Virus record (IMG/VR): IMGVR_UViG_3300022917_000008
Coordinates: 1-64,000 of that record
Length of the DNA stretch: 64,000 bases
Source of the DNA: a virus
Lineage: Duplodnaviria > Caudoviricetes
Direction: 5' to 3' (one strand)
Shown here: piece by piece, positions 9,631 through 56,315 of the stretch
Position numbering within the stretch: the first letter of the stretch is position 1
Layout of the letters: every line of letters starts with the position of its first letter
Translations under genes and position numbers: made by a program
The notes under the pieces: generated by a model
Told to the model about the DNA's origin: nothing
The model's database searches: none
The model's input: the letters and a program-made list of their open reading frames with translations, nothing else

Positions 9631-11520
9631 CTATTTCACTTCACATGCACCACCAGCACAAGCTAGCTCTCCCTTTAAGTCAGTAGTATCATCTAGTTCT
9701 ACTACCTTAGTTAGATCAATGCTGGTAAGGTGCTTCGCTTTCTCTTCATATTCTTCTTTAGTAATACTTTCAAATGGTGCTTGTACATAGGTGCCATTAT
9801 CGTATGGGAGAACACTAAGGCCATTATACACTTCCTTATTGTTCCACATCCATTCTCCAACTACTTCCCACTCATTCTTACTCTCATATGGTAGGTTACT
9901 AGAGTATACAGCCTTTCCATTGATAGATACAGTAGCACTAACATTATGTGTATTATCTCCATATCTATGCCCTGCTCTAACCCATTCAGTACTGATCTTC
10001 TTTACTCTTTCAAGTAAGTCAATAGCACTTTCAGTTCTTAGAATTGCTCCTTCAGGTGCTGCAATAGGAATTCTCACACATATGGTGTCATGTGGCCTTA
10101 GTTGGTCATCCTCTACTAACTCAGGATGATTGACAATCAAATAGGACGCAATGTCTTCATTCCTATTGAATCTCAATGTTCTAAGATAGTATCTGTCATG
10201 CCATGCATGTATGCCAGATGAAGTACCTAATACACAACTGGTTGTACCTGAAGGCTTTACACAAGTAACCCTAGCTGCCTGATTAATGCCTATCTGGTTA
10301 GACATGTACTCATTCATCTTCTTGGCAATCAGGGCCATCTTCTTCAGGTCATACTTGAGTATTTCTCCAGATGCAATACCAGTCATTCCTATACCTAATA
10401 GAGCATCCTTTTCTGTTGTCTTCTTCCAGATAGGTCTGAGATAATGGAAGTCTGTAAATCCAGCCTGAAGGGTTCCAAAGAAGGCTGCAGCTCCTACTCT
10501 CTCAATCAGGTCTGTCTCATCCTCTATATCAGACACATTTATTTCACAGAGATTACAAAACTGGTATGGTCTTAGTCCAATCTCACAACAGGGATTTGTT
10601 CCCCAATCTGAGTTGTTACTGAGATAAAAACCAGGTTCTCCACTCCCACTTAATTCAATCTTTTTCCACAGTTCAAAGAATTCTTCCTCTTCAATCCTAC
10701 TCCTTACTATGACAGCACTATTGTTAGCCCTGCCTCTTTGCTCATTCAATTCCCACCAACTACCATACTTACATGTCAGCATCTCCTCATCATCAAATGA
10801 GAATAGGGCAATCATAGCTGCTCTTCTAATGCCTCCTGCCAGCACTGCATTTGCAATGTGACAGAGTATGTCATGGCACTCAATGGGACTCAACTTTTCT
10901 CCATTCTTCTTCCTGTCTAGTATCTGCTGTACTTTAAACAGACACTCTTTAAGTGGCTCAGGACCAGGTGCTTTACCACCAGCAGTCACAAGCCTCGCCC
11001 CTTTAGGTCTAATATCCCTCAAATCAAAGAGTGGAAGGGGCCCACCATCTAAATAGGCTTTCATCAATGCTTTTACAGCATCAGCCCAACCTTCAATAGA
11101 ATCACCTACCAGGTACCTTCTTGTTTTAGTAGGTATTCTAATCTCAGGTAGTTTGTCAACATGATGAAACTGAACACTATATCCAATACCTGTTCCACCT
11201 AGTAGTAGGAACATAGCTTCACTGAATGAATGAAGACTATCTATTGGGAAGAAGCAACAGTTATATATCCTGCTAGGAGTTCTCTCAATTGCAGGACCTG
11301 CAAATTGTAGTGCCCTCATGGATGGTAGCACCTTTTTACTCAGTATGAAGTTTATATTCTCACTGATCTCCTTAATCAGCTTAGGGTACTGCTTTACCAT
11401 CATATCCTTGTACCTCATTACTATCTCATACCAAGTCTCCCTCCTCTGTAGTTCTGGGATATACTTGGCATACTTACTGAACACTGTCAACTCTGACAAA
11501 ATTTCCAACCCTTTATCCAT
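9631..11520 (-). CDS. nrdJ: Ribonucleotide reductase, class II (adenosylcobalamin-dependent) type
   Basis: YNCC, TNPCCEI, VKPSGT, C-terminal ACAGGACEV; no beta-subunit gene nearby. Confidence 0.9.
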   Translation of the reverse strand: MDKGLEILSELTVFSKYAKYIPELQRRETWYEIVMRYKDMMVKQYPKLIKEISENINFILSKKVLPSMRALQFAGPAIERTPSRIYNCCFFPIDSLHSFSEAMFLLLGGTGIGYSVQFHHVDKLPEIRIPTKTRRYLVGDSIEGWADAVKALMKAYLDGGPLPLFDLRDIRPKGARLVTAGGKAPGPEPLKECLFKVQQILDRKKNGEKLSPIECHDILCHIANAVLAGGIRRAAMIALFSFDDEEMLTCKYGSWWELNEQRGRANNSAVIVRSRIEEEEFFELWKKIELSGSGEPGFYLSNNSDWGTNPCCEIGLRPYQFCNLCEINVSDIEDETDLIERVGAAAFFGTLQAGFTDFHYLRPIWKKTTEKDALLGIGMTGIASGEILKYDLKKMALIAKKMNEYMSNQIGINQAARVTCVKPSGTTSCVLGTSSGIHAWHDRYYLRTLRFNRNEDIASYLIVNHPELVEDDQLRPHDTICVRIPIAAPEGAILRTESAIDLLERVKKISTEWVRAGHRYGDNTHNVSATVSINGKAVYSSNLPYESKNEWEVVGEWMWNNKEVYNGLSVLPYDNGTYVQAPFESITKEEYEEKAKHLTSIDLTKVVELDDTTDLKGELACAGGACEVK

Positions 11521-41792: not shown

Positions 41793-43814
41793 TTATAAGA
41801 CTAACTCCTTTACAGGTTGGTACCTGTTTGAGGCATGCAGAGTCTTCAATGGCAAGAATGCATCAATGATGTCCAGATCATGGATGTTGGTGAACACCTG
41901 ATTCAAGACACCCATATTACATCCTCCAAAGTACATGATATTGGGAATATCCTGGAACTTCTTCCCATCTCCTACAGAGCCCTCCTTGACATCCCATATA
42001 ACAGTAACACCTTCCCATCCAAACCATTGCCTCATCTTGTTCTGGAACTCAAGGAAGCTTGATGTTGGACTATAAGAGCTATTGAACTCACCATCAGACA
42101 TGGCCAGTATGACCTTGTACCTGTTGATCATATCAATCCTCTGTGATGAGAATGCAGGCTCTTCATCTACCCATATCTTTAGTGCATCAGGTATTGCACT
42201 AAAGTTGGTACTACCATGTGGAGTACCAATGTACTTGGATATATTACTGAGATTCCATGAGAATGGCTTAGTCCTATCAACTAGTACATCAACAGTTGTG
42301 ACCTTAGTTGACATAAACTTGTTTCTCCCATTGGTCTCTGACTTAGTACCTGCAGCTACAACATCAGCTGAGGAACCAAACCTTACCAGGAATTCTCCTG
42401 CTTCAGCATCAGGGTTCTTCAGCAAGAATACTGTAGTGGCTAGCTGACAAAGTGCATTGGCACTGAATTCACTACCCTTGTGACTAACAGCTCTCATAGC
42501 CATAGACCCTGAGATGTCAGATGCTACAAGTACAGGTACCTGTAGTATAATCTTCTCAAGCAGGCTAAATGCCTTGACATCCATTTCTGCAGGAGTAAGT
42601 TTCCTGCTTGCAATCTCTGCAATGAGGTCAATGAGAACATCCCCAGCTACATTCACCTTAGCAGCCTTTTGGACTTGCTGAAGTTCCTTAGTGGTCATCT
42701 TCTCCTTTTCCTCAGTTGTGAGTGATGCAAGCTTGGTTTGGGCCTTCTGCTTGTCTGCCAGCCATTGGATGTACACAGCACCACAGTTCTCCCCAGACTT
42801 AAGTTTCCACTTATCCCTGGGTGAAAGTGTTCCTGCTTTGTCCTTGCTACATATCCTGCAGGCTACCCTATACCTTGCCTCAGAAGGCAATGTGTCTAAC
42901 CAATCCATAAACTGAGTCTTGTCCATGAATGTTACACTCCTGGGATCATCCAGATGTGCACTAAACTTAACAGCCTCAGTTTCAGACAGGTAGGTTTTCC
43001 TAAACTGCCTGTAACCCTCGAAATGCAAACCACCCTTCATCTTGGTGATCTTCCAGTCCATCTTGGCAGACAATGCCTTGATGAAATCAATCACCCAAGC
43101 ATCCTTCTGCTTTGTGTGCTCTTTCTTCTCTTTCTTCACTGTGATGGAATCACCCACCTTGGCATCAGCATACTTCTCATTCTTCTTGAATGCCTTGATG
43201 TTCTTGTCAGTAATAACATACTTGCGTATCCTACTACTGTTTGGTACATGGGGTAACCACCTGGCCCACAGCATCTTTTCATTCTCTGTGGTAGTAGTTG
43301 CCTTTAGTACCTTAGTGATGTAATCAGTGACAGGGTTAATGCCTACATCCAGCTTCAGAACTTCCTGTAGTGTACCTTTGTACCTATCAGTCTTCAGCTG
43401 GTAAAACATGATACCCCCCAAATTGTAATACTCTCCTATGATTGGTAGGAAAGTATAGAACTGCACTGGAGCCCTTTCAAGCATCCATTTTAAGCAGTAC
43501 ATAAACACACGTCTCTTACTCTGACCACCAGTGTCAGGTGTCTTGATACCTCTCCTACGGAAGACATTGTGTTCCCTATTGCTCATATCCCCTAGTGAGA
43601 ATACAAGAACATAGAACAACTCTTTCTTCTCCTTAGTGTTGCATTCACTCCATGCAGCGTCAAGGTACCTGTAAACCTGTTGCTGAGTGACTGTAGTATC
43701 TGATAACTTGTTGCCCTGTTGAAACAAGTCCAGTGTACTACTCATCTTGTAGAAAGGATTACTCTCCACAAGCTTTGATGTCTTAGCAGCCATAATTGAT
43801 CCACTCATTGACAT
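41793..43814 (-). CDS. Ro60/TROVE-like protein (DUF2828-type helical domain plus C-terminal vWA)
   Basis: N-terminal SSTLDLF...AAW.E...F.L.D...GGQSKRRVF resembles DUF2828; vWA MIDAS SDISGSM, STNF, SDGEF, VIWDV; directly downstream of the RNA island. Confidence 0.7.
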   Translation of the reverse strand: MSMSGSIMAAKTSKLVESNPFYKMSSTLDLFQQGNKLSDTTVTQQQVYRYLDAAWSECNTKEKKELFYVLVFSLGDMSNREHNVFRRRGIKTPDTGGQSKRRVFMYCLKWMLERAPVQFYTFLPIIGEYYNLGGIMFYQLKTDRYKGTLQEVLKLDVGINPVTDYITKVLKATTTTENEKMLWARWLPHVPNSSRIRKYVITDKNIKAFKKNEKYADAKVGDSITVKKEKKEHTKQKDAWVIDFIKALSAKMDWKITKMKGGLHFEGYRQFRKTYLSETEAVKFSAHLDDPRSVTFMDKTQFMDWLDTLPSEARYRVACRICSKDKAGTLSPRDKWKLKSGENCGAVYIQWLADKQKAQTKLASLTTEEKEKMTTKELQQVQKAAKVNVAGDVLIDLIAEIASRKLTPAEMDVKAFSLLEKIILQVPVLVASDISGSMAMRAVSHKGSEFSANALCQLATTVFLLKNPDAEAGEFLVRFGSSADVVAAGTKSETNGRNKFMSTKVTTVDVLVDRTKPFSWNLSNISKYIGTPHGSTNFSAIPDALKIWVDEEPAFSSQRIDMINRYKVILAMSDGEFNSSYSPTSSFLEFQNKMRQWFGWEGVTVIWDVKEGSVGDGKKFQDIPNIMYFGGCNMGVLNQVFTNIHDLDIIDAFLPLKTLHASNRYQPVKELVL

Positions 43815-43855: not shown

Positions 43856-43922
43856 ACTCACTAATGTTGATCAATTACAAGTTGATTGCTTTTGCAAAGC
43901 ATTGATTTGATTCTAAGTGAGT
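43856..43922 (-). ncRNA. Motif RNA 1: minimal Y-like RNA carrying a Thr(UGU) anticodon stem-loop
   Basis: ACTCACTTAGAAT...ATCAA-CTTGTAA-TTGAT...TTAGTGAGT. Confidence 0.7.
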
Positions 43923-44001
43923 GAAGAAGTTAGTGTTAAGCTTGTCTCTCGCTACATGGCCTTTGCAGGGTTATTATGTAGACGTTTGCACTTAACACTT
44001 G

Positions 44002-44121
44002 TGTAGGGGATGGGATTCGAACCACATACATACGTCCTCCAAAAGGAATTGTATAAGTTATTCTAAGTAGTGTAATATACACTACTAATACTACGTGCTC
44101 TACCAATTGAGCTACCCCTAC
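44002..44121 (-). tRNA. Motif RNA 2: tRNA-Gln(UUG)-like RNA with a ~46-nt motif-containing insert in the 5' anticodon stem
   Basis: GTAGGGG/CCCCTAC acceptor, GCTC-AATTGGTA-GAGC D arm, CGT[insert]CC-TTTTGGA-GGACG, TTCGAAT T loop. Confidence 0.7.
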
Positions 44122-44395
44122 AAAATAGGAGTTCCTCCATAGAAAATGGAGGAACTCATAATGTCCTTAAAAACAACCTGTTGCAGAACCAAGCCTTGGC
44201 CATTTCAGCCAATACTTGTTTTTTGAGCAATATTGCTCGCTCTTGGAGGGAGATACAATCCCCTTCCAAGACTGGTAGTGAGCTGTGTCTAGTCTAACAC
44301 CTAGTCACCTGCCTACTAACATAGTTTGACAGTTACAATAGAAAAAGCCCCACATAGATATGTAGGGCCTTTATCAAAATTAACTGTAGGAACAG

Positions 44396-44514
44396 TTGGG
44401 GGACTTGGAATCGAACCAAGGACTATTCCTTATGATGGAATAATTGTTGTTGATGGATTATAAGTAGGTGTACCTACTAAGTAACTAATTGTGATACCAC
44501 TTCACCATCCCCCA
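44396..44514 (-). tRNA. Motif RNA 3: tRNA(CAU)-like RNA with a motif hairpin inserted between the D arm and anticodon arm
   Basis: TGGGGGA/TCCCCCA, GTGA-AGTGGTA-TCAC, TTAG-TAGG-TACA-CCTA-CTTATAAT insert, ATTCC-ATCATAA-GGAAT, CTTGG-TTCGATT-CCAAG. Confidence 0.75.
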
Positions 44515-44521
44515 ATATAGA

Positions 44522-44582
44522 GACTCACTAATTGTTAATCTGGTGTTCCACTTAAGGAACTAGGTTGGATTCTAAGTGAGTC
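44522..44582 (-). ncRNA. Motif RNA 4: minimal Y-like RNA with one internal hairpin
   Basis: GACTCACTTAGAAT...GTTCC-TTAAGT-GGAAC...TTAGTGAGTC. Confidence 0.65.
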
Positions 44583-44591
44583 AAGAAATTA

Positions 44592-44711
44592 AGTCCTCTA
44601 ACTTATTTTTGGATTGATTAAGAATCAATTGCCTAACCATTTGGCTACTGTGGATTGCTCCATAGACAGGATTCGAACCTGTATTATTTGTTAAAGTATT
44701 CTAAGAGGACT
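44592..44711 (-). ncRNA. Motif RNA 5: circularly permuted tRNA-Lys(CUU)-like RNA closed by the motif stem
   Basis: AGTCCTCTTAGAAT..T arm ACAGG-TTCGAAT-CCTGT, acceptor CTATGGA-GCAA-TCCACAG, D arm, ATTGA-TTCTTAA-TCAAT..TTAGAGGACT. Confidence 0.85.
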
Positions 44712-44716
44712 ATTTG

Positions 44717-44791
44717 TGGAGAAAGTAAGACTCGAACTTACCTCCCTTGCTTATTTAAGGCAAGCCTGTAACCACTCCAGGGCATTTCTCC
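44717..44791 (-). tRNA. tRNA-like gene with a 9-nt anticodon loop (undetermined, possibly UAA)
   Basis: GGAGAAA/TTTCTCC, CTTGC-CTTAAATAA-GCAAG, GTAAG-TTCGAGT-CTTAC. Confidence 0.6.
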
Positions 44792-44795
44792 AGGG

Positions 44796-44924
44796 ATTTC
44801 ACTAAGTTTAGTTGCCTATTTTCAAGTAGGTGCCTGACCACACAGGCTTACCCCCCATTAAATCTCCTCACATATGTGGGGGGTTAGGATTCGAACCCAT
44901 TTTTTGAGGTATTCTAAGTGAAAT
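44796..44924 (-). ncRNA. Motif RNA 6: circularly permuted tRNA-like RNA (Phe GAA or Ser UGA, ambiguous)
   Basis: ATTTCACTTAGAAT..GG-TTCGAAT-CC..CCCCCCA-19nt-TGGGGGG, GCCTG-TGTGGT-CAGGC, CCTA-CTTGAAAA-TAGG..TTAGTGAAAT. Confidence 0.8.
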
Positions 44925-45075
44925 AAAGAACTTGAGTGAGCTTGGCCAAGCTGTATTATTCCCCTACACTTTTACAGTAGCACTGAAGCTTTTACAAAAA
45001 AGGCCATATCTTCTTTAGGCCCTAGGGCTCTAGTCTAACTATTAAGTACAGACCTTGTTAACACTCACTCTTTTG

Positions 45076-45158
45076 TGTTGGTGGGAGGGGTTACACCTCC
45101 ATGCCTTGCGGCGCTTTGACATTTAATCGCAGTGTGTCTATATTTCCACCACACCAAC
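45076..45158 (-). tRNA. Degenerate type II (Leu-like) tRNA
   Basis: GTTGGTG/CACCAAC acceptor, GTGGAA..AGACAC D arm, GCC-GCAA-GGC variable arm, poor anticodon stem, non-canonical T loop. Confidence 0.5.
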
Positions 45159-45192
45159 AAGTACTGTGCAAACATACAACAATAAACTGAAA

Positions 45193-45392
45193 CCCACTAA
45201 TTTTTCTTCTTTTTTGACATAAAAGTGCTCACCACTGAACTTCTCCCCCTAGTTGAAATATAGTAGGCCTATGGAAATAAGCCTACTTGAAACATCCTTA
45301 GAAGCGCGAGCCACGAAGTGCCCCAGAGATGGGGACTTTGTAGAGCAGGGGGAGCCAGAGTCGAACTGGTATTTGTATGTATTCTAAGTGGG
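45193..45392 (-). ncRNA. Motif RNA 7: circularly permuted tRNA-Asp(GUC)-like RNA with a ~95-nt structured acceptor linker
   Basis: CCCACTTAGAAT..CCAG-TTCGACT-CTGG, TCCCCCT-G...AGGGGGA, GTTC-AGTGGT-GAGC, CTTTT-ATGTCAA-AAAAG..TTAGTGGG. Confidence 0.8.
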
Positions 45393-45474
45393 CTAAAGAG
45401 TTTAAAAGAAGGGTGTAGAAACACCCTTCGAGGTGTTAAGTAACCCCAAAAGGGGCTTTACTTATGAAAAAAGG

Positions 45475-45575
45475 TGTGGAGAGGAGGATTTGAACCTCCA
45501 TGAATGTCTTGCAACATTCCCAGCTATAGTCCAGGGTCCAGCCTATAGCCTGCTCTACTATTGGCATACCTCCAC
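45475..45575 (-). tRNA. tRNA-like RNA with an enlarged anticodon arm and long variable arm
   Basis: GTGGAGG/TCTCCAC, GGCTATAG-13nt-CTATAGCT, GAATGT-TGCAAG-ACATTC, GGAGG-TTCAAAT-CCTCC. Confidence 0.55.
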
Positions 45576-45584
45576 ATATGTATA

Positions 45585-45803
45585 TCAGTCACTTATATCC
45601 TCATATATAGTAGCTGATAAAGCTATTATTGATAGTACTATTAATAATGCTATTGAAACCCATGCAGGTAGGTACAATATGGCACATGCTATTATACCAG
45701 CTATCAAAGCCATTACAACCAATATGGCTAGGGCTATGCCTACACTTTCTGCTGCCTTACGTGTATCCATCTGCTTCCTCCTTGTATTTGTCTCTGTACA
45801 CAT
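45585..45803 (-). CDS. Small membrane protein with two TM segments
   Basis: ORF track; probable start at MDTRK. Confidence 0.6.
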   Translation of the reverse strand: MCTETNTRRKQMDTRKAAESVGIALAILVVMALIAGIIACAILYLPAWVSIALLIVLSIIALSATIYEDISD

Positions 45804-46266
45804 TCCTTAGTATGGATAGGATTCTTGCATTAGGCTTTGTGCTTGGATTGAGAGACCTTGCAGTAAAGTAGTCAATGTCTGCCCAATCATTGATAAATTG
45901 AGCAACTGCACCACTTCTTTTGACCCCAGCAGCACAATGCACTACACATACATCTGCATGGCTATTCTGCTCTATAAAGGCCAAAATAGCCTTTCCCTGC
46001 TCCTCACTCATGGGAACTACAGAAATGTACTCTCTTTTGTCACGACCCAATAAAGGCACCTGTAATGGCTCATCAACATCATCAAATAGTAGTCTTAGAA
46101 CATTTGGATGGTCTTTTTGGAACCAGTGGGGCATTCTTAGCAGGTCTTGCTCTCCTATTATCTCAATGAAGCAAGCCTTGTTCTTTAGGCTAACATTTTC
46201 ATCATTAAGATGTTCCCTAGCTACCATTGCTCCAAACTGATTCCATGATAATGCAAGTGCTATCAT
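45757..46266 (-). CDS. Protein tyrosine / dual-specificity phosphatase-like protein
   Basis: VHCAAGVKRSGA CX5R motif, FDD loop, PN..I. Confidence 0.9.
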   Translation of the reverse strand: MIALALSWNQFGAMVAREHLNDENVSLKNKACFIEIIGEQDLLRMPHWFQKDHPNVLRLLFDDVDEPLQVPLLGRDKREYISVVPMSEEQGKAILAFIEQNSHADVCVVHCAAGVKRSGAVAQFINDWADIDYFTARSLNPSTKPNARILSILRNVYRDKYKEEADGYT

Positions 46267-46432
46267 CTTTCAGTGTCTTTATAAACATCATAAGATACAG
46301 TGAGGGCAATGGAACTAGCTAGTACCCACCACATATATTCACTGTCATGCTGAATTACCAGTAATATTGTGTTAAGTATAACAGACAGCCCGTTTAGTAT
46401 TACAGCAGCTAAGGCAGCCCAATGTAATGCTC

Positions 46433-46663
46433 TCATTTCTTACCTCCTAATAGCATTATCAAGCCTGTAGCAACACCCAGTCCTATCCATATAGATAGAG
46501 ACAAGACAGTACTAAAGGCAATAACCCATAAGAATATAACCATAACAGCATGAACACTAGGTTCACTTATTCCAGCTGTTATCCAGTGGATGATATGGTT
46601 AGCTGTACTAAAGCACATCCACATTGAAAAGATTGCTATTGCAATCGCAATAATGTATCTCAT
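46433..46663 (-). CDS. Small membrane protein
   Basis: Two hydrophobic segments. Confidence 0.6.
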   Translation of the reverse strand: MRYIIAIAIAIFSMWMCFSTANHIIHWITAGISEPSVHAVMVIFLWVIAFSTVLSLSIWIGLGVATGLIMLLGGKK

Positions 46664-47085
46664 TTCTCCAGTAACTTGTAATAGCCTTTGCAGTGATCAC
46701 ACTGACTAAGGCACTTTGACTTCCCCTCTACATTCCTCTGACAATAGACATATCTATTGAATTTGGCAATACCCAAGGAGAGTTTAATAGTCTTCGTATA
46801 GGCAACTAGGCTATGCACATACAGATCAGGTCTGAATATGTGCATAAAATCCCCTAAGGAGTAGGTTCTTCCTTTGCAGAAAAATCTAGCCTTTCCCCTT
46901 AGTTTAACATTCATTCTCCACATCCATCCATCTATTGGATCAGTATGTGGGCTAAGAACAGTCTTAGCTGGATACTTGAGTATATACCCATCAAATCCAA
47001 CCCTTCCTATTCTGAGGTAAAGGAAGCACCACTTATAGTAGATAACTCCCTGTTGTCTGCCTGGTATCCACCTAAATAGTTTCAT
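46660..47085 (-). CDS. 2OG-Fe(II) oxygenase-like protein
   Basis: ILKYP...HTDP...R.NV...FRPD..VHS (HxD...H triad). Confidence 0.65.
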   Translation of the reverse strand: MKLFRWIPGRQQGVIYYKWCFLYLRIGRVGFDGYILKYPAKTVLSPHTDPIDGWMWRMNVKLRGKARFFCKGRTYSLGDFMHIFRPDLYVHSLVAYTKTIKLSLGIAKFNRYVYCQRNVEGKSKCLSQCDHCKGYYKLLEK

Positions 47086-47342
47086 ATCCTGTGTTAAAAA
47101 GAGAGCCCCATAGTAGAAACTAAGGGCTGCTAACGATTGCTTGCCATATTAAAAAGAGTTAATCCTGTCTACCTCCAATAGTAGAATAGTCCAGCAAAAC
47201 TTAATGCTCAGCCCTTGTGAAAGGGTTTTCTCAAACTATCTCCCTTATCAAGCTTGCCTTGGATAGCCTACATTCCTTTTGGGTGTCCTGTAGTGCTTGC
47301 CTAAGAGCAGGACTAAAGAATTTTAGGAGCAATCAAAATGTC

Positions 47343-47621
47343 TTACTGTTGTGCGTTAGCATGAGCATGTTCCTCCTGCTGAGTAGCCTCCTCCTGGGTG
47401 TTCTCCTCAGCATGTATTTCATTCACAGACTCATAGAACATGTTTGTCCTGTTCCTACAGGCCTGTTTGGCATCCTCACTCAGGTCCTCAAAGGGCACCA
47501 TAAGGTTCTCACCATTTACATCCACACTCTTGTGGCCCTGTCCCTCTTTGTCAGAGACCCACTTCTTGTGTTGGCGTGCTGATACTTTCTCAATGTCAGG
47601 TAATTGCAAGTTGTTCTTCAT
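47343..47621 (-). CDS. Small protein resembling a RyR-repeat domain
   Basis: H..W...K...G......LMVPFEDLSE..K pattern. Confidence 0.55.
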   Translation of the reverse strand: MKNNLQLPDIEKVSARQHKKWVSDKEGQGHKSVDVNGENLMVPFEDLSEDAKQACRNRTNMFYESVNEIHAEENTQEEATQQEEHAHANAQQ

Positions 47622-47670
47622 ACTTGTTCTGTTTTTATGAAAGTGAATAAATAAGCTTTGTTAAAATAGG

Positions 47671-47789
47671 AACTCACTAAACTTTTTAAGATGGGAGTCG
47701 AACCCATTACCCATTGATTAGAAGTCAATTGCTCTACCAAATGAGCTACTTCTCCAGATTAAGGAGATTTGATGTATTCTAAGTGAGTT
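47671..47789 (-). ncRNA. Motif RNA 8: tRNA-Arg(UCU)-like RNA permuted within the acceptor stem
   Basis: AACTCACTTAGAAT..TCTCC-TTAATCT-GGAGAAG-TA-D arm-ATTGA-CTTCTAA-TCAAT-GGGTA-ATGGG-TTCGACT-CCCAT-CTT..TTAGTGAGTT. Confidence 0.85.
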
Positions 47790-47866
47790 AAGAAAGTATG
47801 TAGGGGCGTGCTTCCAGCTACACCACAACTTGAAGGGCCTTGACCCTTGCCTCCCCTACAATAATA

Positions 47867-48442
47867 TTACATCTTCCTAAAGGAAGTCTTCTTGTCAAAC
47901 CCATGACTAACTACCTTCTCAATGTCAGTCCTTGTATCCTTGATAATAGGTTCCCTAGTTAAGAACTCTACTATCCTAAGGTACGCATCTTCAGGAGGCA
48001 CTAACCTACCAAACTGAAAGTCTGCTAGCTTTACATTCTTAGTACCTTCCCCATCAAATGTATACCTAGGTAGTAGCACCACAGGACAGTTTAGCTTCTC
48101 ATTCACATCTGTTGGTTTGTTATGTCCAGTAAGGTACTCACGCTCAGTAGGGAGTTTGTATGCATTCTCCTTATCCACAAACTTTCTTAGCACTAGGACT
48201 TCATCCCCTATGTATACCTTCCCATTGTAACAACACACCTTGTACGTTGTTCCACAAAAAGCTATTCCATAATAGTAATACCCAGGTAGGTCAAGATACT
48301 CAGGCCTGTATATGCCACTTTTCACCCATGAGTGCTGTGGTGTTTCAGTTTCACATACTCTCTCATATACTACCTTAGGGTCAATACCATATTTACCAAT
48401 AAGGAAGTCATAGTAGTCCTTGAAGTTAGATACGATCTTCAT
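47867..48442 (-). CDS. Conserved-looking hypothetical phage protein
   Basis: MKI.S.FKDYYD N-terminus and HGFDKKTSFR C-terminus. Confidence 0.75.
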   Translation of the reverse strand: MKIVSNFKDYYDFLIGKYGIDPKVVYERVCETETPQHSWVKSGIYRPEYLDLPGYYYYGIAFCGTTYKVCCYNGKVYIGDEVLVLRKFVDKENAYKLPTEREYLTGHNKPTDVNEKLNCPVVLLPRYTFDGEGTKNVKLADFQFGRLVPPEDAYLRIVEFLTREPIIKDTRTDIEKVVSHGFDKKTSFRKM

Positions 48443-48990
48443 GACACAGTTTTTGCTTGTCCAAACAGTAGTTGGTCTAGATGATCCTGCATTTCCCTGT
48501 ATTCATTCCCTAGTTGCATCTCACTGAGGAACTGATTGTGCTCCCTCATGTGCATACTAAGCTTGCTGTTCTTGAACATGACACCATGCCTTACATTGGC
48601 TATCTTGTCACAAAGCTTGACAAACTTAGCACCAGGAGTTTCCCTTATGTTCTGCCAGTATATAGGTGGATGTCTTTCATTCCTATTCCTACCAGGATAC
48701 TCAGTAACAGCTAGAATGACTTCAGCTACCCATATAGCATCTTCATTAGTGTGTCCTTCAAGCAGGCTAATGTGTTGAATCACATCACTGTAGTTGGTTC
48801 TTGCATCTTCATACAGGTCATGGCCTGCAATGGCATACCTGTACCTCCAAAACTCTGCTTTGGGCACCAGATGTTGGAACTCCTTAGCTACTTGTAAGGC
48901 AAGCCTCAGATGATACTCATAAGGCAGATAGTCCTCATACATGTGATTTGTTATCTCATGCCTGTGAATGGCCCATGTCACAAAGTCCAT
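48439..48990 (-). CDS. HD-domain protein, SpoT/Mesh1-like (p)ppGpp hydrolase family
   Basis: PYEYHL, GHDLYED, V.AVTE, VKLCDKIAN; start moved to the ATG at 48990 because the upstream GTG lies inside motif RNA 9. Confidence 0.8.
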   Translation of the reverse strand: MDFVTWAIHRHEITNHMYEDYLPYEYHLRLALQVAKEFQHLVPKAEFWRYRYAIAGHDLYEDARTNYSDVIQHISLLEGHTNEDAIWVAEVILAVTEYPGRNRNERHPPIYWQNIRETPGAKFVKLCDKIANVRHGVMFKNSKLSMHMREHNQFLSEMQLGNEYREMQDHLDQLLFGQAKTVS

Positions 48991-49016
48991 AAATGGTTGT
49001 TTTAAGGTTAAAAATA

Positions 49017-49129
49017 AGCTCACTAATTCTTTTTTTGGCACACCTAGGGGGATTGGATACCCCCACTTCCAGGGCTAGCCTGGCGTCTTATTTAGACTAT
49101 AGATATAAGTAAAGTATTCTAAGTGAGCT
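49017..49129 (-). ncRNA. Motif RNA 9: complete CCA-ending tRNA-like cloverleaf enclosed by the motif stem
   Basis: AGCTCACTTAGAAT..ATATCTA-TA-GTCT-AAATA-AGAC-G-CCAGG-CTAGC-CCTGG-AAGT-GGGGG-TATCCAAT-CCCCC-TAGGTGT-G-CCA..TTAGTGAGCT. Confidence 0.75.
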
Positions 49130-49153
49130 GTTGATATGCATGATACTATGTAG

Positions 49154-49260
49154 GGGGGAAGGTGGGATTTGAACCCACTATTACAAAAACCAAATTTTGC
49201 TTTTTACCAATGTTTGAAGGTATTCTAAGAGGTCAACCTCTAACAAGATTAACTTCCCCC
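49154..49260 (-). ncRNA. Motif RNA 10: tRNA-like RNA with the motif hairpin in the D-arm region
   Basis: GGGGAAG/CTTCCCC, TTAG-AGG-TTGA-CCT-CTTAGAAT, CAAAA-TTTGGT-TTTTG, GTGGG-TTCAAAT-CCCAC. Confidence 0.7.
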
Positions 49261-49475
49261 ATTTAGACCCTTCTGGTGGGTCAGCCCGTCCATTCAATGC
49301 CTTTCTGGTATATGTCTCACCACCCTGCTTCCAGTTGCACATACTGTATTGAGTGTAGTCTATTGTGGCGACCCAATACTATGTGAGGCAAAGAGATTCC
49401 ACCTCCTCCTGGACTAGGACTGGAGGTCATTTTGCAGAGTACCACCGTCCAAAAGTACACGTACAGTGTGAACCT

Positions 49476-50057
49476 TTATCTTTGTCTTTGAGTCTGCCTC
49501 AAAGGTACTTTTAGTGCCTCATCATACATCTTAGACAAGTCATTAATGTGTATATGAGCACTAATGCCCCAGTTACCATTAACCCTTAATGTAAGATACT
49601 CACTCTTCAGCCAATCAGGGAACTCCATATTACCCCTTGTCTTATTACACTTCTTGCATGCACTAATAAGGTTCTCTTCAACTGAAGCACCCATCTTCTC
49701 CCAAAGGACAATATGGTCTACAGTCAAGGGTACTTGGTTATTACCACAATACTGACAAGTGTAGTTGTCTCTCCTGAATACATTCCAGGATATAGTTTGT
49801 TCAATGTTTCTTTGAGACTTTCTAAGTACTACCTTGTTGAGTCCCATAACCCCCAATGTATCAAGCTGATACAAGAGGGTCTTCCACTCTTCATGAGTGG
49901 GTTGTATGATGGATAGAGGTACTAGACCAGTCTCTGGAAAAAGCATTAGTTCTGCTTCCTGTCCATTAGCCAGTAACATACCACTTATCTCTAGCTTATC
50001 ACCATACTTCAATAACTCCTCTGGCCTAAATGGCCCAGTCAAATTCTTCATAGACAC
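49476..50057 (-). CDS. HNH endonuclease
   Basis: RRDNYTCQYCG...TVDHI...NLISACKKCNKTRG. Confidence 0.9.
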   Translation of the reverse strand: MSMKNLTGPFRPEELLKYGDKLEISGMLLANGQEAELMLFPETGLVPLSIIQPTHEEWKTLLYQLDTLGVMGLNKVVLRKSQRNIEQTISWNVFRRDNYTCQYCGNNQVPLTVDHIVLWEKMGASVEENLISACKKCNKTRGNMEFPDWLKSEYLTLRVNGNWGISAHIHINDLSKMYDEALKVPLRQTQRQR

Positions 50058-50073
50058 AGTTTGTTTAGAGTAG

Positions 50074-50179
50074 CTGGGGAACCCATATTGCTATGGGCAC
50101 TTGGATTTGGACTCCAAGGTTCAGTGTAATGTTATTCTAAGTAAGGAAGGGTCTTACTAACACTTAATGAATTCCCCAG
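50074..50179 (-). ncRNA. Motif RNA 11: cloverleaf with a motif arm, Trp(CCA)-like anticodon arm and GNRA arm
   Basis: CTGGGGAA/TTCCCCAG, TTAG-TAAG-ACCCTTC-CTTA-CTTAGAAT, TTGGA-GTCCAAA-TCCAA, CCCATA-GCAA-TATGGG. Confidence 0.7.
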
Positions 50180-50193
50180 TTTCCCTGATTGTT

Positions 50194-50265
50194 GTTTGGT
50201 GACAGTCACTAATATCTTAAAACCATATCTAAGTTGTTGTGTTTATTCTAAGTGTACTACCAAAC
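50194..50265 (-). ncRNA. Motif RNA 12: minimal Y-like RNA
   Basis: GTTTGGT-AGTACACTTAGAAT...TTAGTGACT..ACCAAAC. Confidence 0.65.
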
Positions 50266-51044: not shown

Positions 51045-52724
51045 TCAACTTTTGTTAAACAAGTACAGAGTACCTGCAGTCAGACATAATATGCCTGAGT
51101 TGCAGATTCTGAGTACTGACTGCTCAGTCACAAACCTACATGCTATAGTTGCTATCTTTGCAAGGTCAGACTTTCTGTATACATCCATAGCACCATTTGT
51201 TGGTATGTATAGATGGTCTCCTCTTTCAGCAATGATACACATCCCATTTAGCTTCGGGCCCAACTCTACTCTCATACCCTTGACAGCAAATAAGAAGTGC
51301 TCTACTTGGCTGCCCAATTTACTCTCAATGACACCATATTTACCACTAGGGCATAAATACACATCAGTTGCATTAGTAGCTGTTCTCAGTGTTGTCATAT
51401 GACCCAACGAGATGTCAATGATAAACTTACTACCAACTACAGTCTGGACTATGCCAGTTTGCACCACAACTGATTTAGTGTAGATAGAACCCATTGTAGA
51501 GGATATGTGTCCATTGAGGATTTGGTCTACTGCAATAATAATGAAGGAATCACTTCCACTATCAAAGTATATGCTCTTCCCATTACTTGTGTGACCAAAT
51601 GAACCTGATGGGATGAGAAAGTTCTTCACTTCCTCCTCTCCTTGTTGGGTGCAATTGTAGAGTTTACTGTACCTTGTTATTACAACATTGGTATTACCGA
51701 GGATACATCCTTCAGCCTTAGTTGATACATGGTGCTTAGCATATGCACCTGGGCCTGTACTTCTGTAGATTGTGAATGTATCAGTATCTTTCCTTGTGTA
51801 GAAGAAGCTGTCTGTTGCATCAAAGTCTTCCACATCAAGATTGATTGTTCTTACTGTAAGCTCACCTTCCTTAATAGCCTGTATGAATGAGGATACTTTG
51901 CCTACTGGTACATGAGCATTAGTATATACTCCTCCACTCACATTAGGCACAAACCTCTCAGCATCCTGGAATATCTTAATGAACTGGTCAGTGACTCTTC
52001 TGTCACTAAATGGTTCATAGAATGCAGGGATTACCAAATCAGGATCATTTGATAATACTGAGATTTTCCTGATCACTCTGTCCTCAAACTTCTGTACCTT
52101 CCTGTGTATACCCTTGTAAGGGTGTAGATGAGTGAACATCTGGAAGACCATAACTGAAAGTGCATAGTAATCAGACTTGTCATCAATGTGGTTGTACAAC
52201 CAATCCCTTATCTCAGGCAACATCACACCTGAGTGTGGTCTGCTCTTAGTCTGGAATGAGTCCACATCAATGAAATAGACCTCAGCCTTGTTGGACACAA
52301 ATATGTTATAGGGGTTGAAGTCCCCTATCACAATGCCCAACTTATGTGCCTGGATCATGCTGGCTATCATACCAGCATATATATCTTGCTTGACCTTCTC
52401 TGTGAACCCTGCCTTAGTTGCAGTGGGCTTAGAGAAGATAGTTGCAAGTAGGTGCAGTTTATGAGTATCTAAGTACTTCATAGACAGACCTTTAAGAAAA
52501 CCTTGTTTGTCGTAAAACAACTCCAATGGCTTAATGAAGTTGTCAGGGAGTACCATAAGCTCCTGCAGTGTCTGTAGGGATAGATTGCCTCTCTGGTGAT
52601 ACACTTTGATGACTTGATGGGAATCTTTTGGATGCTCATACAATGTACCTTCACCCCCTCTATTGATCTCCTTGTTTGTATCAACAGACAAAGCTATCTT
52701 CCCATAACCATCATATAGTGTCAT
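51045..52724 (-). CDS. Ser/Thr protein kinase (TerY-P triad type)
   Basis: RGGEGTLY, VIKVY, IGDFNPYNI, FIDVDS, D.YAL, HPYKG. Confidence 0.9.
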   Translation of the reverse strand: MTLYDGYGKIALSVDTNKEINRGGEGTLYEHPKDSHQVIKVYHQRGNLSLQTLQELMVLPDNFIKPLELFYDKQGFLKGLSMKYLDTHKLHLLATIFSKPTATKAGFTEKVKQDIYAGMIASMIQAHKLGIVIGDFNPYNIFVSNKAEVYFIDVDSFQTKSRPHSGVMLPEIRDWLYNHIDDKSDYYALSVMVFQMFTHLHPYKGIHRKVQKFEDRVIRKISVLSNDPDLVIPAFYEPFSDRRVTDQFIKIFQDAERFVPNVSGGVYTNAHVPVGKVSSFIQAIKEGELTVRTINLDVEDFDATDSFFYTRKDTDTFTIYRSTGPGAYAKHHVSTKAEGCILGNTNVVITRYSKLYNCTQQGEEEVKNFLIPSGSFGHTSNGKSIYFDSGSDSFIIIAVDQILNGHISSTMGSIYTKSVVVQTGIVQTVVGSKFIIDISLGHMTTLRTATNATDVYLCPSGKYGVIESKLGSQVEHFLFAVKGMRVELGPKLNGMCIIAERGDHLYIPTNGAMDVYRKSDLAKIATIACRFVTEQSVLRICNSGILCLTAGTLYLFNKS

Positions 52725-55828: not shown

Positions 55829-55911
55829 TGTATGTTGTTTTTTGTTTGGCTTAATAAAGGAGGTCTTACATAGACATGCAAGGCCTGTAATTTATACCCT
55901 TAAACTAAAAG

Positions 55912-56315
55912 TGGAGGTGAGGGGAGTTGAACCCCTGTCCAACTTCAGTATCAATGTGTAGGAGTTTATATGCTTATCTGTGTTTGTCTTCTACAGTAGA
56001 ATAGTCAATTCACTTATCGCGTAGCACTGGGCAGAATTGACAATCACCACACTACTTTAGGTAGTGACTCTTTTGCTTTAGCTTATTAGGCAGCTATAGC
56101 TACACCTGTGTAAAGGCTTCTTACAGCCCCTTTGCTTCTGCTGTCACCAGCTTTGGCTACACTTGCTTTCAGCATAAATGCTGATTTACCTACTTTATTA
56201 GCAGATATTGTTCCGTCTCATTTGTTAGGTACATTACTGTACTTTAGGCCCTCATGACGCTTGGGCCTGCATAACTACCTATCAATACACAAAGCTGTCT
56301 AAACCTGGCACCCCC
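55912..56315 (-). ncRNA. ssrA: tmRNA
   Basis: 5' GGGGGTG..TTTAGAC; 3' GACAGGGGTTCAACTCCCCT-CACCTCC-A; G3:U70 Ala identity; internal ORF ending VAIAA-TAA-TAA. Confidence 0.9.

Follow-up and report, generated by a model that had tools for sequence, protein, structure and literature searches.

Ro60 (Rsr) occurs together with transfer RNA (tRNA)-like Y RNAs of the YrlA type in bacteria and mycobacteriophages (Chen et al. 2014, PMC4201824; RF02553), and these RNAs are laid out in the order 5′ stem, T arm, capped acceptor-like hairpin, D arm and 3′ stem (PMC4201824). The Thermus phage phiLo carries a Ro60 with two Y-like RNAs, Yrl1 and Yrl2, immediately upstream, and this arrangement has been studied structurally (PMC12135203). 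The DNA considered here consists of the first 64,000 nucleotides (the window) of the 155,657-bp virus record IMGVR_UViG_3300022917_000008 (Duplodnaviria; Caudoviricetes). It contains a cluster of small, tRNA-shaped RNA genes located upstream of a gene whose 673-residue product is predicted to have a Ro60-like fold, and a short octamer with a complementary partner strand recurs throughout that cluster. We favor, with moderate confidence, the interpretation that these repeats are the handle of Y-RNA-like tRNA mimics that bind the Ro60-like protein; the tRNA-shaped RNAs most likely represent a variant Ro/Y-RNA particle, and not a set of broken tRNA genes.

A repeated element upstream of a Ro60-like gene

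Genes and RNAs in the repeat region are directed along the minus strand, and the element is read here in the RNA sense on that strand. An earlier note on this DNA had listed 11 plus-strand starts of the octamer and a variant at 44457; every one of the 11 carries ATTCTAAG, and the variant is present as ATTATAAG. There are 12 plus-strand copies of ATTCTAAG in the whole phage record, 11 of them between 43.9 and 50.3 kb and only one outside this cluster, at 90052. The window also has a single minus-strand copy, at 10037, and the count against expectation that the note had proposed comes out in its favor, with 12 copies in the window compared with 2.96 expected from shuffled sequences (shuffle maximum 9). 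All of the copies are intergenic, as had been claimed, once the GTG start at 49041 is exchanged for an ATG about 50 nucleotides downstream.

In the RNA sense the element, which we refer to as the handle, comprises a 5′ helix strand, CUUAGAAU, a body, UUAG and a 3′ helix strand. The core is CUUANAAU, with a final G now and then. The eight nucleotides 3′ of the octamer are almost G-free and have a conserved U at +4, and the eight nucleotides 5′ of UUAG are A-rich. The 673-residue protein has 37 homologues, and the loci of seven of them (L125 to L131) were examined; the pairing statistics below cover the window cluster together with these seven loci (eight loci, about 80 kb). The description of the core as invariant holds for CUUANAAU, which is kept, but not for the fifth base of the octamer, which varies in relatives (G 29, U 9, C 2, A 1).

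The location of the handles relative to the Ro60-like gene is conserved. Those of the cluster are on the same strand as the gene and within 6.4 kb upstream of it, and the window and all but one of the seven related loci (L125, L126, L128, L129, L130 and L131) have a handle unit directly upstream of the gene. This linkage persists down to 42% protein identity. The rest of the neighborhood differs: close relatives have genes of the small-RNA cluster there, and distant relatives have Ter genes.

Helix pairing and covariation

According to the earlier note, each octamer is accompanied by a CTAA partner with complementary flanks. This is the case for 11 of the 12 copies, with helices of 4–7 bp (5–7 consecutive pairs in ten copies and 4 in the copy at 50134); the copy at 50245 is imperfect (Table 1). 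The division into two orientation classes is borne out: eight copies are closing helices and four (44060, 44457, 49222 and 50134) are internal hairpins. Closing and hairpin copies both bear the paired helix, and the motif is usable in two circular permutations, as had been suggested.

Across the eight loci there are 55 sense-strand and 15 antisense copies of CTTANAAT, and a UUAG partner with a helix of at least 5 bp is present at 32 of the 55 sense copies, compared with 3.7% of random positions. The motif is found in six related phage contigs besides the window genome, and 38 distinct helices are available for comparison. Shuffling of the partners over these helices gives a z of 11.7 for positions 1–6, and of 4.7 for positions 5–6, which lie outside the rule used to select the units. 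Several pair types are seen at every helix position, with 14 G·U pairs in total, and among the non-Watson-Crick positions G·U is found at 10 and A·C at 4. The variable, covarying stems proposed in the earlier note are therefore real, and covariation that includes G·U pairs implies that both strands are needed in one RNA. The hairpin copies sit between the acceptor strands of tRNA-like genes, so the motif must be transcribed. Covariation and location inside tRNA-like genes both support the view that this is an RNA-level element rather than a DNA repeat.

A bulge within the helix, which formed part of the original description, is not established; minimum free energy folds pair the helix plus a C-G and a U-A, and place the remaining octamer bases in a large loop. 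When closing units are folded, the closing helix surrounds a structured body, with z of −1.8 to −3.9 in six of seven. A kink-turn was considered and excluded because the fifth base of the octamer is free: the G expected there may be G, U, C or A, and the would-be second pair is A-U.

The 3′ helix strand is followed by a U-rich tail in 12 of 30 closing units, compared with 3.8% at random, and there are three strong terminators inside the RNA cluster. These tails and terminators suggest that the cluster may be transcribed as several short units. In about 30 closing units (window and L125–L131) the helix is immediately preceded, on its 5′ side, by a T-rich word resembling AACTTCTT that is loosely conserved; this may be a leader or start region, or may belong to the handle.

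The Ro60-like protein

The 673-residue protein was modeled with AlphaFold2 from 24 sequences (predicted local distance difference test score, pLDDT, 79). The predicted structure has a ring of helical repeats and, after it, a vWA domain with a MIDAS motif (metal ion-dependent adhesion site), and the DxSxS motif of the latter is invariant. In a Foldseek search of the PDB the best 12 matches are all Ro60/TROVE structures, with E-values of 3e-7 to 2e-4. VIA comparison of the model with Ro60 gives Z 17.9 and a root-mean-square deviation of 4.6 Å over 386 residues that span both domains; Ro60 chains as a group align over 386–418 residues of the full-length model with Z 16–17.9, in contrast to vWA-only structures, for which Z is at most 12.7 over about 190 residues. 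In the ESM Atlas the model matches viral clusters with template modeling (TM) scores of 0.64–0.74 over 493–578 residues, one of these being a DUF7788/DUF2828 cluster (0.64/0.72 over 493 residues), and the first-listed matches in BFVD are DUF7788, DUF2828, TROVE and "Ro-like RNA binding" proteins (E 1e-11 to 3e-8). The protein is presumed to be the partner of the handle RNAs.

Bodies of the RNA units and the canonical tRNA set

The bodies that accompany the handle are diverse (Table 1), and include rotated gene orders, capped acceptor stems, grafted cloverleaves and bare anticodon hairpins. The handle is grafted at five cloverleaf positions: the D-loop, between positions 26 and 27, between positions 29 and 30, the variable loop, and the acceptor 3′ strand. 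ARAGORN reports no tRNA in the unmodified window; after circular re-ordering it identifies Asp-GTC, Lys-CTT and Arg-TCT in three of the closing units, and does not recognize the re-ordered unit 44796–44924.

Among the colinear units, 44002–44121 has a 7-bp handle hairpin (44060–44088) in its anticodon stem between positions 29 and 30, a design that recurs with other anticodons in L125 and L131, and 44396–44514 has the variant handle hairpin (44457–44480, CUUAUAAU) between positions 26 and 27. The rotated unit 44592–44711 is arranged as T arm, GCAA-capped acceptor stem, D arm and anticodon arm, with the handle at the variable-loop position. It gives a weak full-length match to the Rfam YrlA model (RF02553), the best seen at 19.9 bits against a threshold of 69, and there is no gathering-level match in six related loci. 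In 47671–47789 the handle departs from the acceptor 3′ strand (CTT / CTCC), and the segment 47688–47751 scores 53.8 bits with the Rfam tRNA model over model positions 5–66 only, the acceptor ends being missing. This Arg-type design is repeated in L129 and L130, where the cap covaries and the anticodon loops are different ones.

The relatives extend the series. An order of T arm, acceptor and D arm with the handle prolonging the anticodon stem is found at L129 2935 and L131 6167, and the same order without any anticodon arm at L126 1230. In L125 there are units with an acceptor/T minihelix or a plain long hairpin, each with a handle, and the L125 counterpart of 50074–50179 retains just a long hairpin and the handle. 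The inner hairpins of the mini unit 43856–43922 are kept in L125 and L128, and its linkers vary. The mini units, the non-tRNA body of 49017–49129 and the L125 units at 2905 and 4721 are unable ever to become tRNAs.

The phage also encodes 23 canonical tRNAs, clustered at genome positions 67699–88121, mostly on the plus strand and outside the window. These include Lys-CTT, Arg-TCT, Asp-GTC, Met, Pro-TGG, Thr-TGT, Gln-TTG and Trp-CCA, cover all of the anticodons that can be assigned to the mimics, and lack handles. Because a full canonical set is encoded elsewhere, the mimics are not needed for decoding.

Table 1. Ro60-like gene and handle-bearing RNA units of the window (coordinates of the window).
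Feature	Coordinates	Strand	Remarks
673-residue Ro60-like protein (predicted TROVE-type helical ring + vWA), DUF2828/DUF7788-like by fold	41793..43814	-	AlphaFold2 model
Mini unit, closing type	43856..43922	-	Handle around 6-bp hairpin and anticodon-like stem-loop (UGU); adjoins Ro60-like gene, upstream
Colinear tRNA-like RNA, UUG anticodon	44002..44121	-	Rfam tRNA 42.7 bits, 57-nt insert
Colinear tRNA-like RNA, CAU	44396..44514	-	Rfam tRNA 43.6 bits, 59-nt insert
Mini unit, closing type, one 5-bp hairpin inside	44522..44582	-	Fold z -3.9
Closing unit, rotated tRNA order, CUU	44592..44711	-	ARAGORN tRNA-Lys (Lys-CTT) once re-ordered
Closing unit, rotated tRNA-like body	44796..44924	-	19-nt linker across acceptor end
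Closing unit, rotated tRNA-like body, GUC	45191..45394	-	About 95 nt between acceptor strands; ARAGORN tRNA-Asp once re-ordered
Closing unit, tRNA-like body, UCU	47671..47789	-	Loop-capped acceptor stem; ARAGORN tRNA-Arg once re-ordered
Closing unit, non-tRNA three-hairpin body	49017..49129	-	Fold z -3.3
Colinear tRNA-like RNA, UGG-like loop	49152..49260	-	Handle hairpin (49222-49243) in D-loop; hairpin weak in fold
Colinear tRNA-like RNA, CCA anticodon	50074..50179	-	Handle hairpin (50134-50160, 4-bp helix) in D-loop
Imperfect closing-type copy (50245)	50196..50262	-	No run of 4 pairs; fold no better than shuffled sequence (z 0.30)

Proposed role and alternative explanations

We propose that the octamer and its partner would form a handle shared by about a dozen small non-coding RNAs. 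This handle would be a short, variable helix whose last pair is C-G, with CUUANAAU and the G-poor linker on its 5′ strand and an A-rich linker followed by UUAG before the helix on its 3′ strand, and by analogy with the docking of the conserved Y RNA stem on Ro60 it may dock the Ro60-like ring protein. Because only the helix and its inner flanks would be needed, the handle could either close the ends of an RNA or be inserted as an extra internal arm. The remainder of each RNA would then be cargo or effector, a whole or partial tRNA look-alike in which factors that bind tRNA could meet a T arm, a D arm and anticodon loops, the latter with eight or more specificities. The RNAs are probably transcribed separately as small RNAs, and may act as decoys or tethers.

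Several observations weigh against this proposal. In L127, the relative furthest removed (36% identity), a single degenerate copy is seen, and it lies away from the gene. The 673-residue protein has no Pfam (E up to 10), PHROG or PDB-sequence-profile match; the Pfam TROVE profile (PF05731) matches neither this protein, nor 24 homologues, nor anything in the whole genome; and the protein is unmatched by the DUF2828 and DUF7788 profiles (PF11443 and PF25043), its likeness to those families being by fold only. When the N-terminal 410 residues are modeled alone (8 sequences, pLDDT 74) they match generic helical repeats, with Z at most 7.4, and no Ro60, so the homology of this domain to TROVE rests on the full-length comparison. 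No CGAA-type word (GNCGAA-type, CGAA or GGUCCGA) is present at the terminal stem, where CUUANAAU and UUAG are found instead. Finally, deletion of the inserts restores 5-bp anticodon stems (CGT plus CC with GGACG, and ATTCC with GGAAT), an outcome also compatible with splicing.

The generic matches of the isolated TROVE part also speak for a handle that serves as an RNA maturation, stability or termination element independently of the Ro60-like protein. The closing stem and U-tail would set the 3′ end, the conserved AU-rich single-stranded segments would be targets of a host RNase (e.g. RNase E) or of another protein, and adjacency to the Ro60-like gene would merely reflect the layout of the small-RNA cluster. 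The U-rich tails that follow the 3′ helix strand agree with this, as do the units of L126 and L130, which are located between protein genes in the manner of processing sites. We nonetheless regard it as unlikely, since it leaves the invariant CUUANAAU/UUAG core and the internal-arm grafting unexplained, and seven loci have retained a unit immediately upstream of the Ro60-like gene. It is very improbable that CTTANAAT instead provides every small gene with a promoter element in the DNA, namely a −10 box of the form TANAAT, with a flank complementarity that is incidental or acts at the DNA level. The TA-N-AAT pattern with a frequent CA about 7 nt downstream does resemble a sigma-70 −10 box and start site, and the 43910 copy has a −35-like TTAACA at 18 nt, but this is the only copy with a −35-like hexamer at a spacing of 16–18 bp. 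Promoter-like sites in the region number 13, compared with 15.4 in shuffled sequences, and only one of them includes the motif, which is also absent upstream of the genome's other genes. The acceptor strands of tRNA-like genes pair across the four hairpin copies, and the helix covariation with its G·U pairs needs both strands in one RNA; a promoter is disfavored because the motif must be transcribed and −35 boxes are lacking.

Bulge-helix-bulge introns and circularly permuted tRNA genes are known from archaea and the red alga Cyanidioschyzon, and the handle might be a bacterial-virus analogue of the archaeal bulge-helix-bulge, a cut-and-rejoin signal: an endonuclease would cleave within the linkers at either side, and a ligase would then connect the exons or close rotated precursors into circles, generating functional tRNAs. 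In addition to the anticodon stems restored by deletion of the inserts, a 7-bp acceptor stem is restored when CTT is joined to CTCC, a downstream-exon pair covaries in L125, three re-ordered units are recognized as tRNAs by ARAGORN, and the insertion sites are like those of archaeal non-canonical introns. ARAGORN cannot place the join, however, because almost any join is accepted. The required cut sites are at varying distance from the motif (sums of 16, 17 and 24 nt), two bulges around a 4-bp helix cannot form, the linkers on both sides being A-rich and unpaired, and the phage genome has no Pfam match to a splicing endonuclease, RtcB or ligases of the Rnl1/Rnl2 type (PF01974, PF01139, PF09414, PF09511). 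Furthermore, many units have no tRNA to restore, acceptor ends are closed by short loops, and canonical tRNAs with the same anticodons are already encoded by the phage. A splice rule with fixed distances was tried and rejected, the implied joins lying 4–9 nt before UUAG and 9–18 nt after the octamer. We consider a cut-and-rejoin signal decidedly unlikely, and it is very improbable that the phage makes working tRNAs from its interrupted and permuted genes, possibly with the Ro60-like protein as a platform. If true, cut-and-rejoin would make this the first bacterial virus with a system of this kind for splicing and permuting tRNAs.

Neighboring genes and related loci

The RNA cluster contains four further tRNA-like RNAs without a handle on the minus strand (44717–44791, 45473–45575, 45075–45165 and 47800–47870), one of which has a 9-nt anticodon loop that resembles the octamer, one a long insert after the D arm, and two of which have odd arm orders. 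One of the 23 canonical tRNAs, at genome positions 83117–83190, has a CTA anticodon (amber-reading) and is labeled Pyl by ARAGORN, and the small-RNA cluster of close relatives encodes a 75-residue RF-1-domain protein; this pair hints at stop-codon suppression or ribosome rescue. A phage transfer-messenger RNA (tmRNA) is located at 55909–56315 of the window on the minus strand (Rfam 75.6 bits; tag peptide ETEQYLLIK).

Several protein genes flank or interrupt the cluster, all on the minus strand. Two overlapping genes within it, at 47867–48442 and 48439–49041, code for a PHROG 4243 protein and an HD-type phosphohydrolase (PHROG 990), and these are possibly RNA-end or nucleotide enzymes. A PHROG 4243 protein is also found within the tRNA/tmRNA clusters of distant phages (L119–L124); these loci, recovered as relatives of the 191-residue neighbor, have ordinary tRNA clusters, and their fragments contain no handle and no Ro60-like match. 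An HNH endonuclease (49476–50057) and a weakly dual-specificity-phosphatase-like protein (45757–46266) flank or interrupt the RNA cluster, and a 559-residue protein with a protein-kinase/RIO-like domain is encoded at 51045–52724; the HNH endonuclease and the 559-residue protein are syntenic in L125 and L129. In L126, L130 and L131 the Ro60-like gene adjoins TerD/TerC/vWA-TerF-like genes and a gene for a DUF7873 protein.

A search for related loci with the 673-residue and HD proteins returned nothing in viral contigs, and there is no DNA or protein match in the isolated-phage collection. Scanning of viral contigs for a pattern of T-loop word plus octamer gave 118 loci, nearly all of which are chance matches and were rejected. 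The only survivors are L071 and L083, which share the same sequence: an element at L071 9446–9500 that combines CTTATAAT and its TTAG partner with a helix of 9 bp. It is located within an otherwise normal tRNA cluster, just upstream of tRNA-Glu, on a 140-kb IMG/VR contig of an unrelated phage with 24 ordinary tRNAs, and in these two incomplete records neither a TROVE match nor a homologue of the Ro60-like protein is found.

Comparison with known systems

Ro60/Y-RNA particles are found in animals, bacteria and a few phages, and the task of the tRNA-like part of bacterial Y RNAs is still open. If the repeats are the handle of Y-RNA-like mimics, this phage family pairs a very divergent Ro60-shaped protein with a dozen RNAs, in which one handle is combined, at five attachment positions, with cargoes that grade from lone anticodon hairpins up to complete cloverleaves with different anticodons. 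The modularity of handle and cargo argues that the business of the particle would be the presentation of tRNA shapes, which might, for example, decoy or tether host enzymes that target tRNA. The units would also constitute a natural mutational series on what the protein and its partners recognize. Rotated or interrupted tRNA-like genes in other phages should be checked for a handle before they are called degraded or spliced. In the literature on permuted and intron-bearing phage tRNAs and on DUF2828 we found no description of such a system.

The permuted and interrupted tRNA genes of archaea and Cyanidioschyzon are similar to those described here in that a single short RNA motif marks inserts as well as rotated-gene ends, across many positions of the cloverleaf; they differ in that the locus here has no two-bulge geometry and no fixed cut distance, and the phage genome gives no match to an endonuclease or ligase gene.

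The likeness to the Ro-binding helix of Y RNAs raised in the earlier note is upheld by the Ro60-like fold encoded next door and by the YrlA gene order, and does not extend to the sequence of the motif. As with YrlA, small RNAs lie beside a Ro60-type gene (here Ro60-like by fold only), and their two ends pair to form a stem whose 5′ strand bears a conserved motif (here in eight copies). The T arm, acceptor-like stem-loop and D arm follow one another in 44592–44711, L126 1230, L129 2935 and 8398, and L131 6167. The other units have other bodies, however, and many retain a full anticodon arm; there are about 12 RNAs per genome compared with 1–4; the handle also occurs as an internal arm at several cloverleaf positions; and the protein is invisible to the TROVE profile.

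The phiLo system provides a parallel in its phage-encoded Ro60-type protein with Y-like RNA genes directly upstream. Its RNAs have CGAA in a stem-bulge-stem and are not described as tRNA-like (PMC12135203), and binding has been demonstrated for phiLo, whereas here it is predicted from comparative sequence and fold evidence. What differs from the known Ro/Y systems is the sequence of the handle, the protein subfamily, how many RNAs there are and how varied their cargo is, and the use of the handle as an internal arm.

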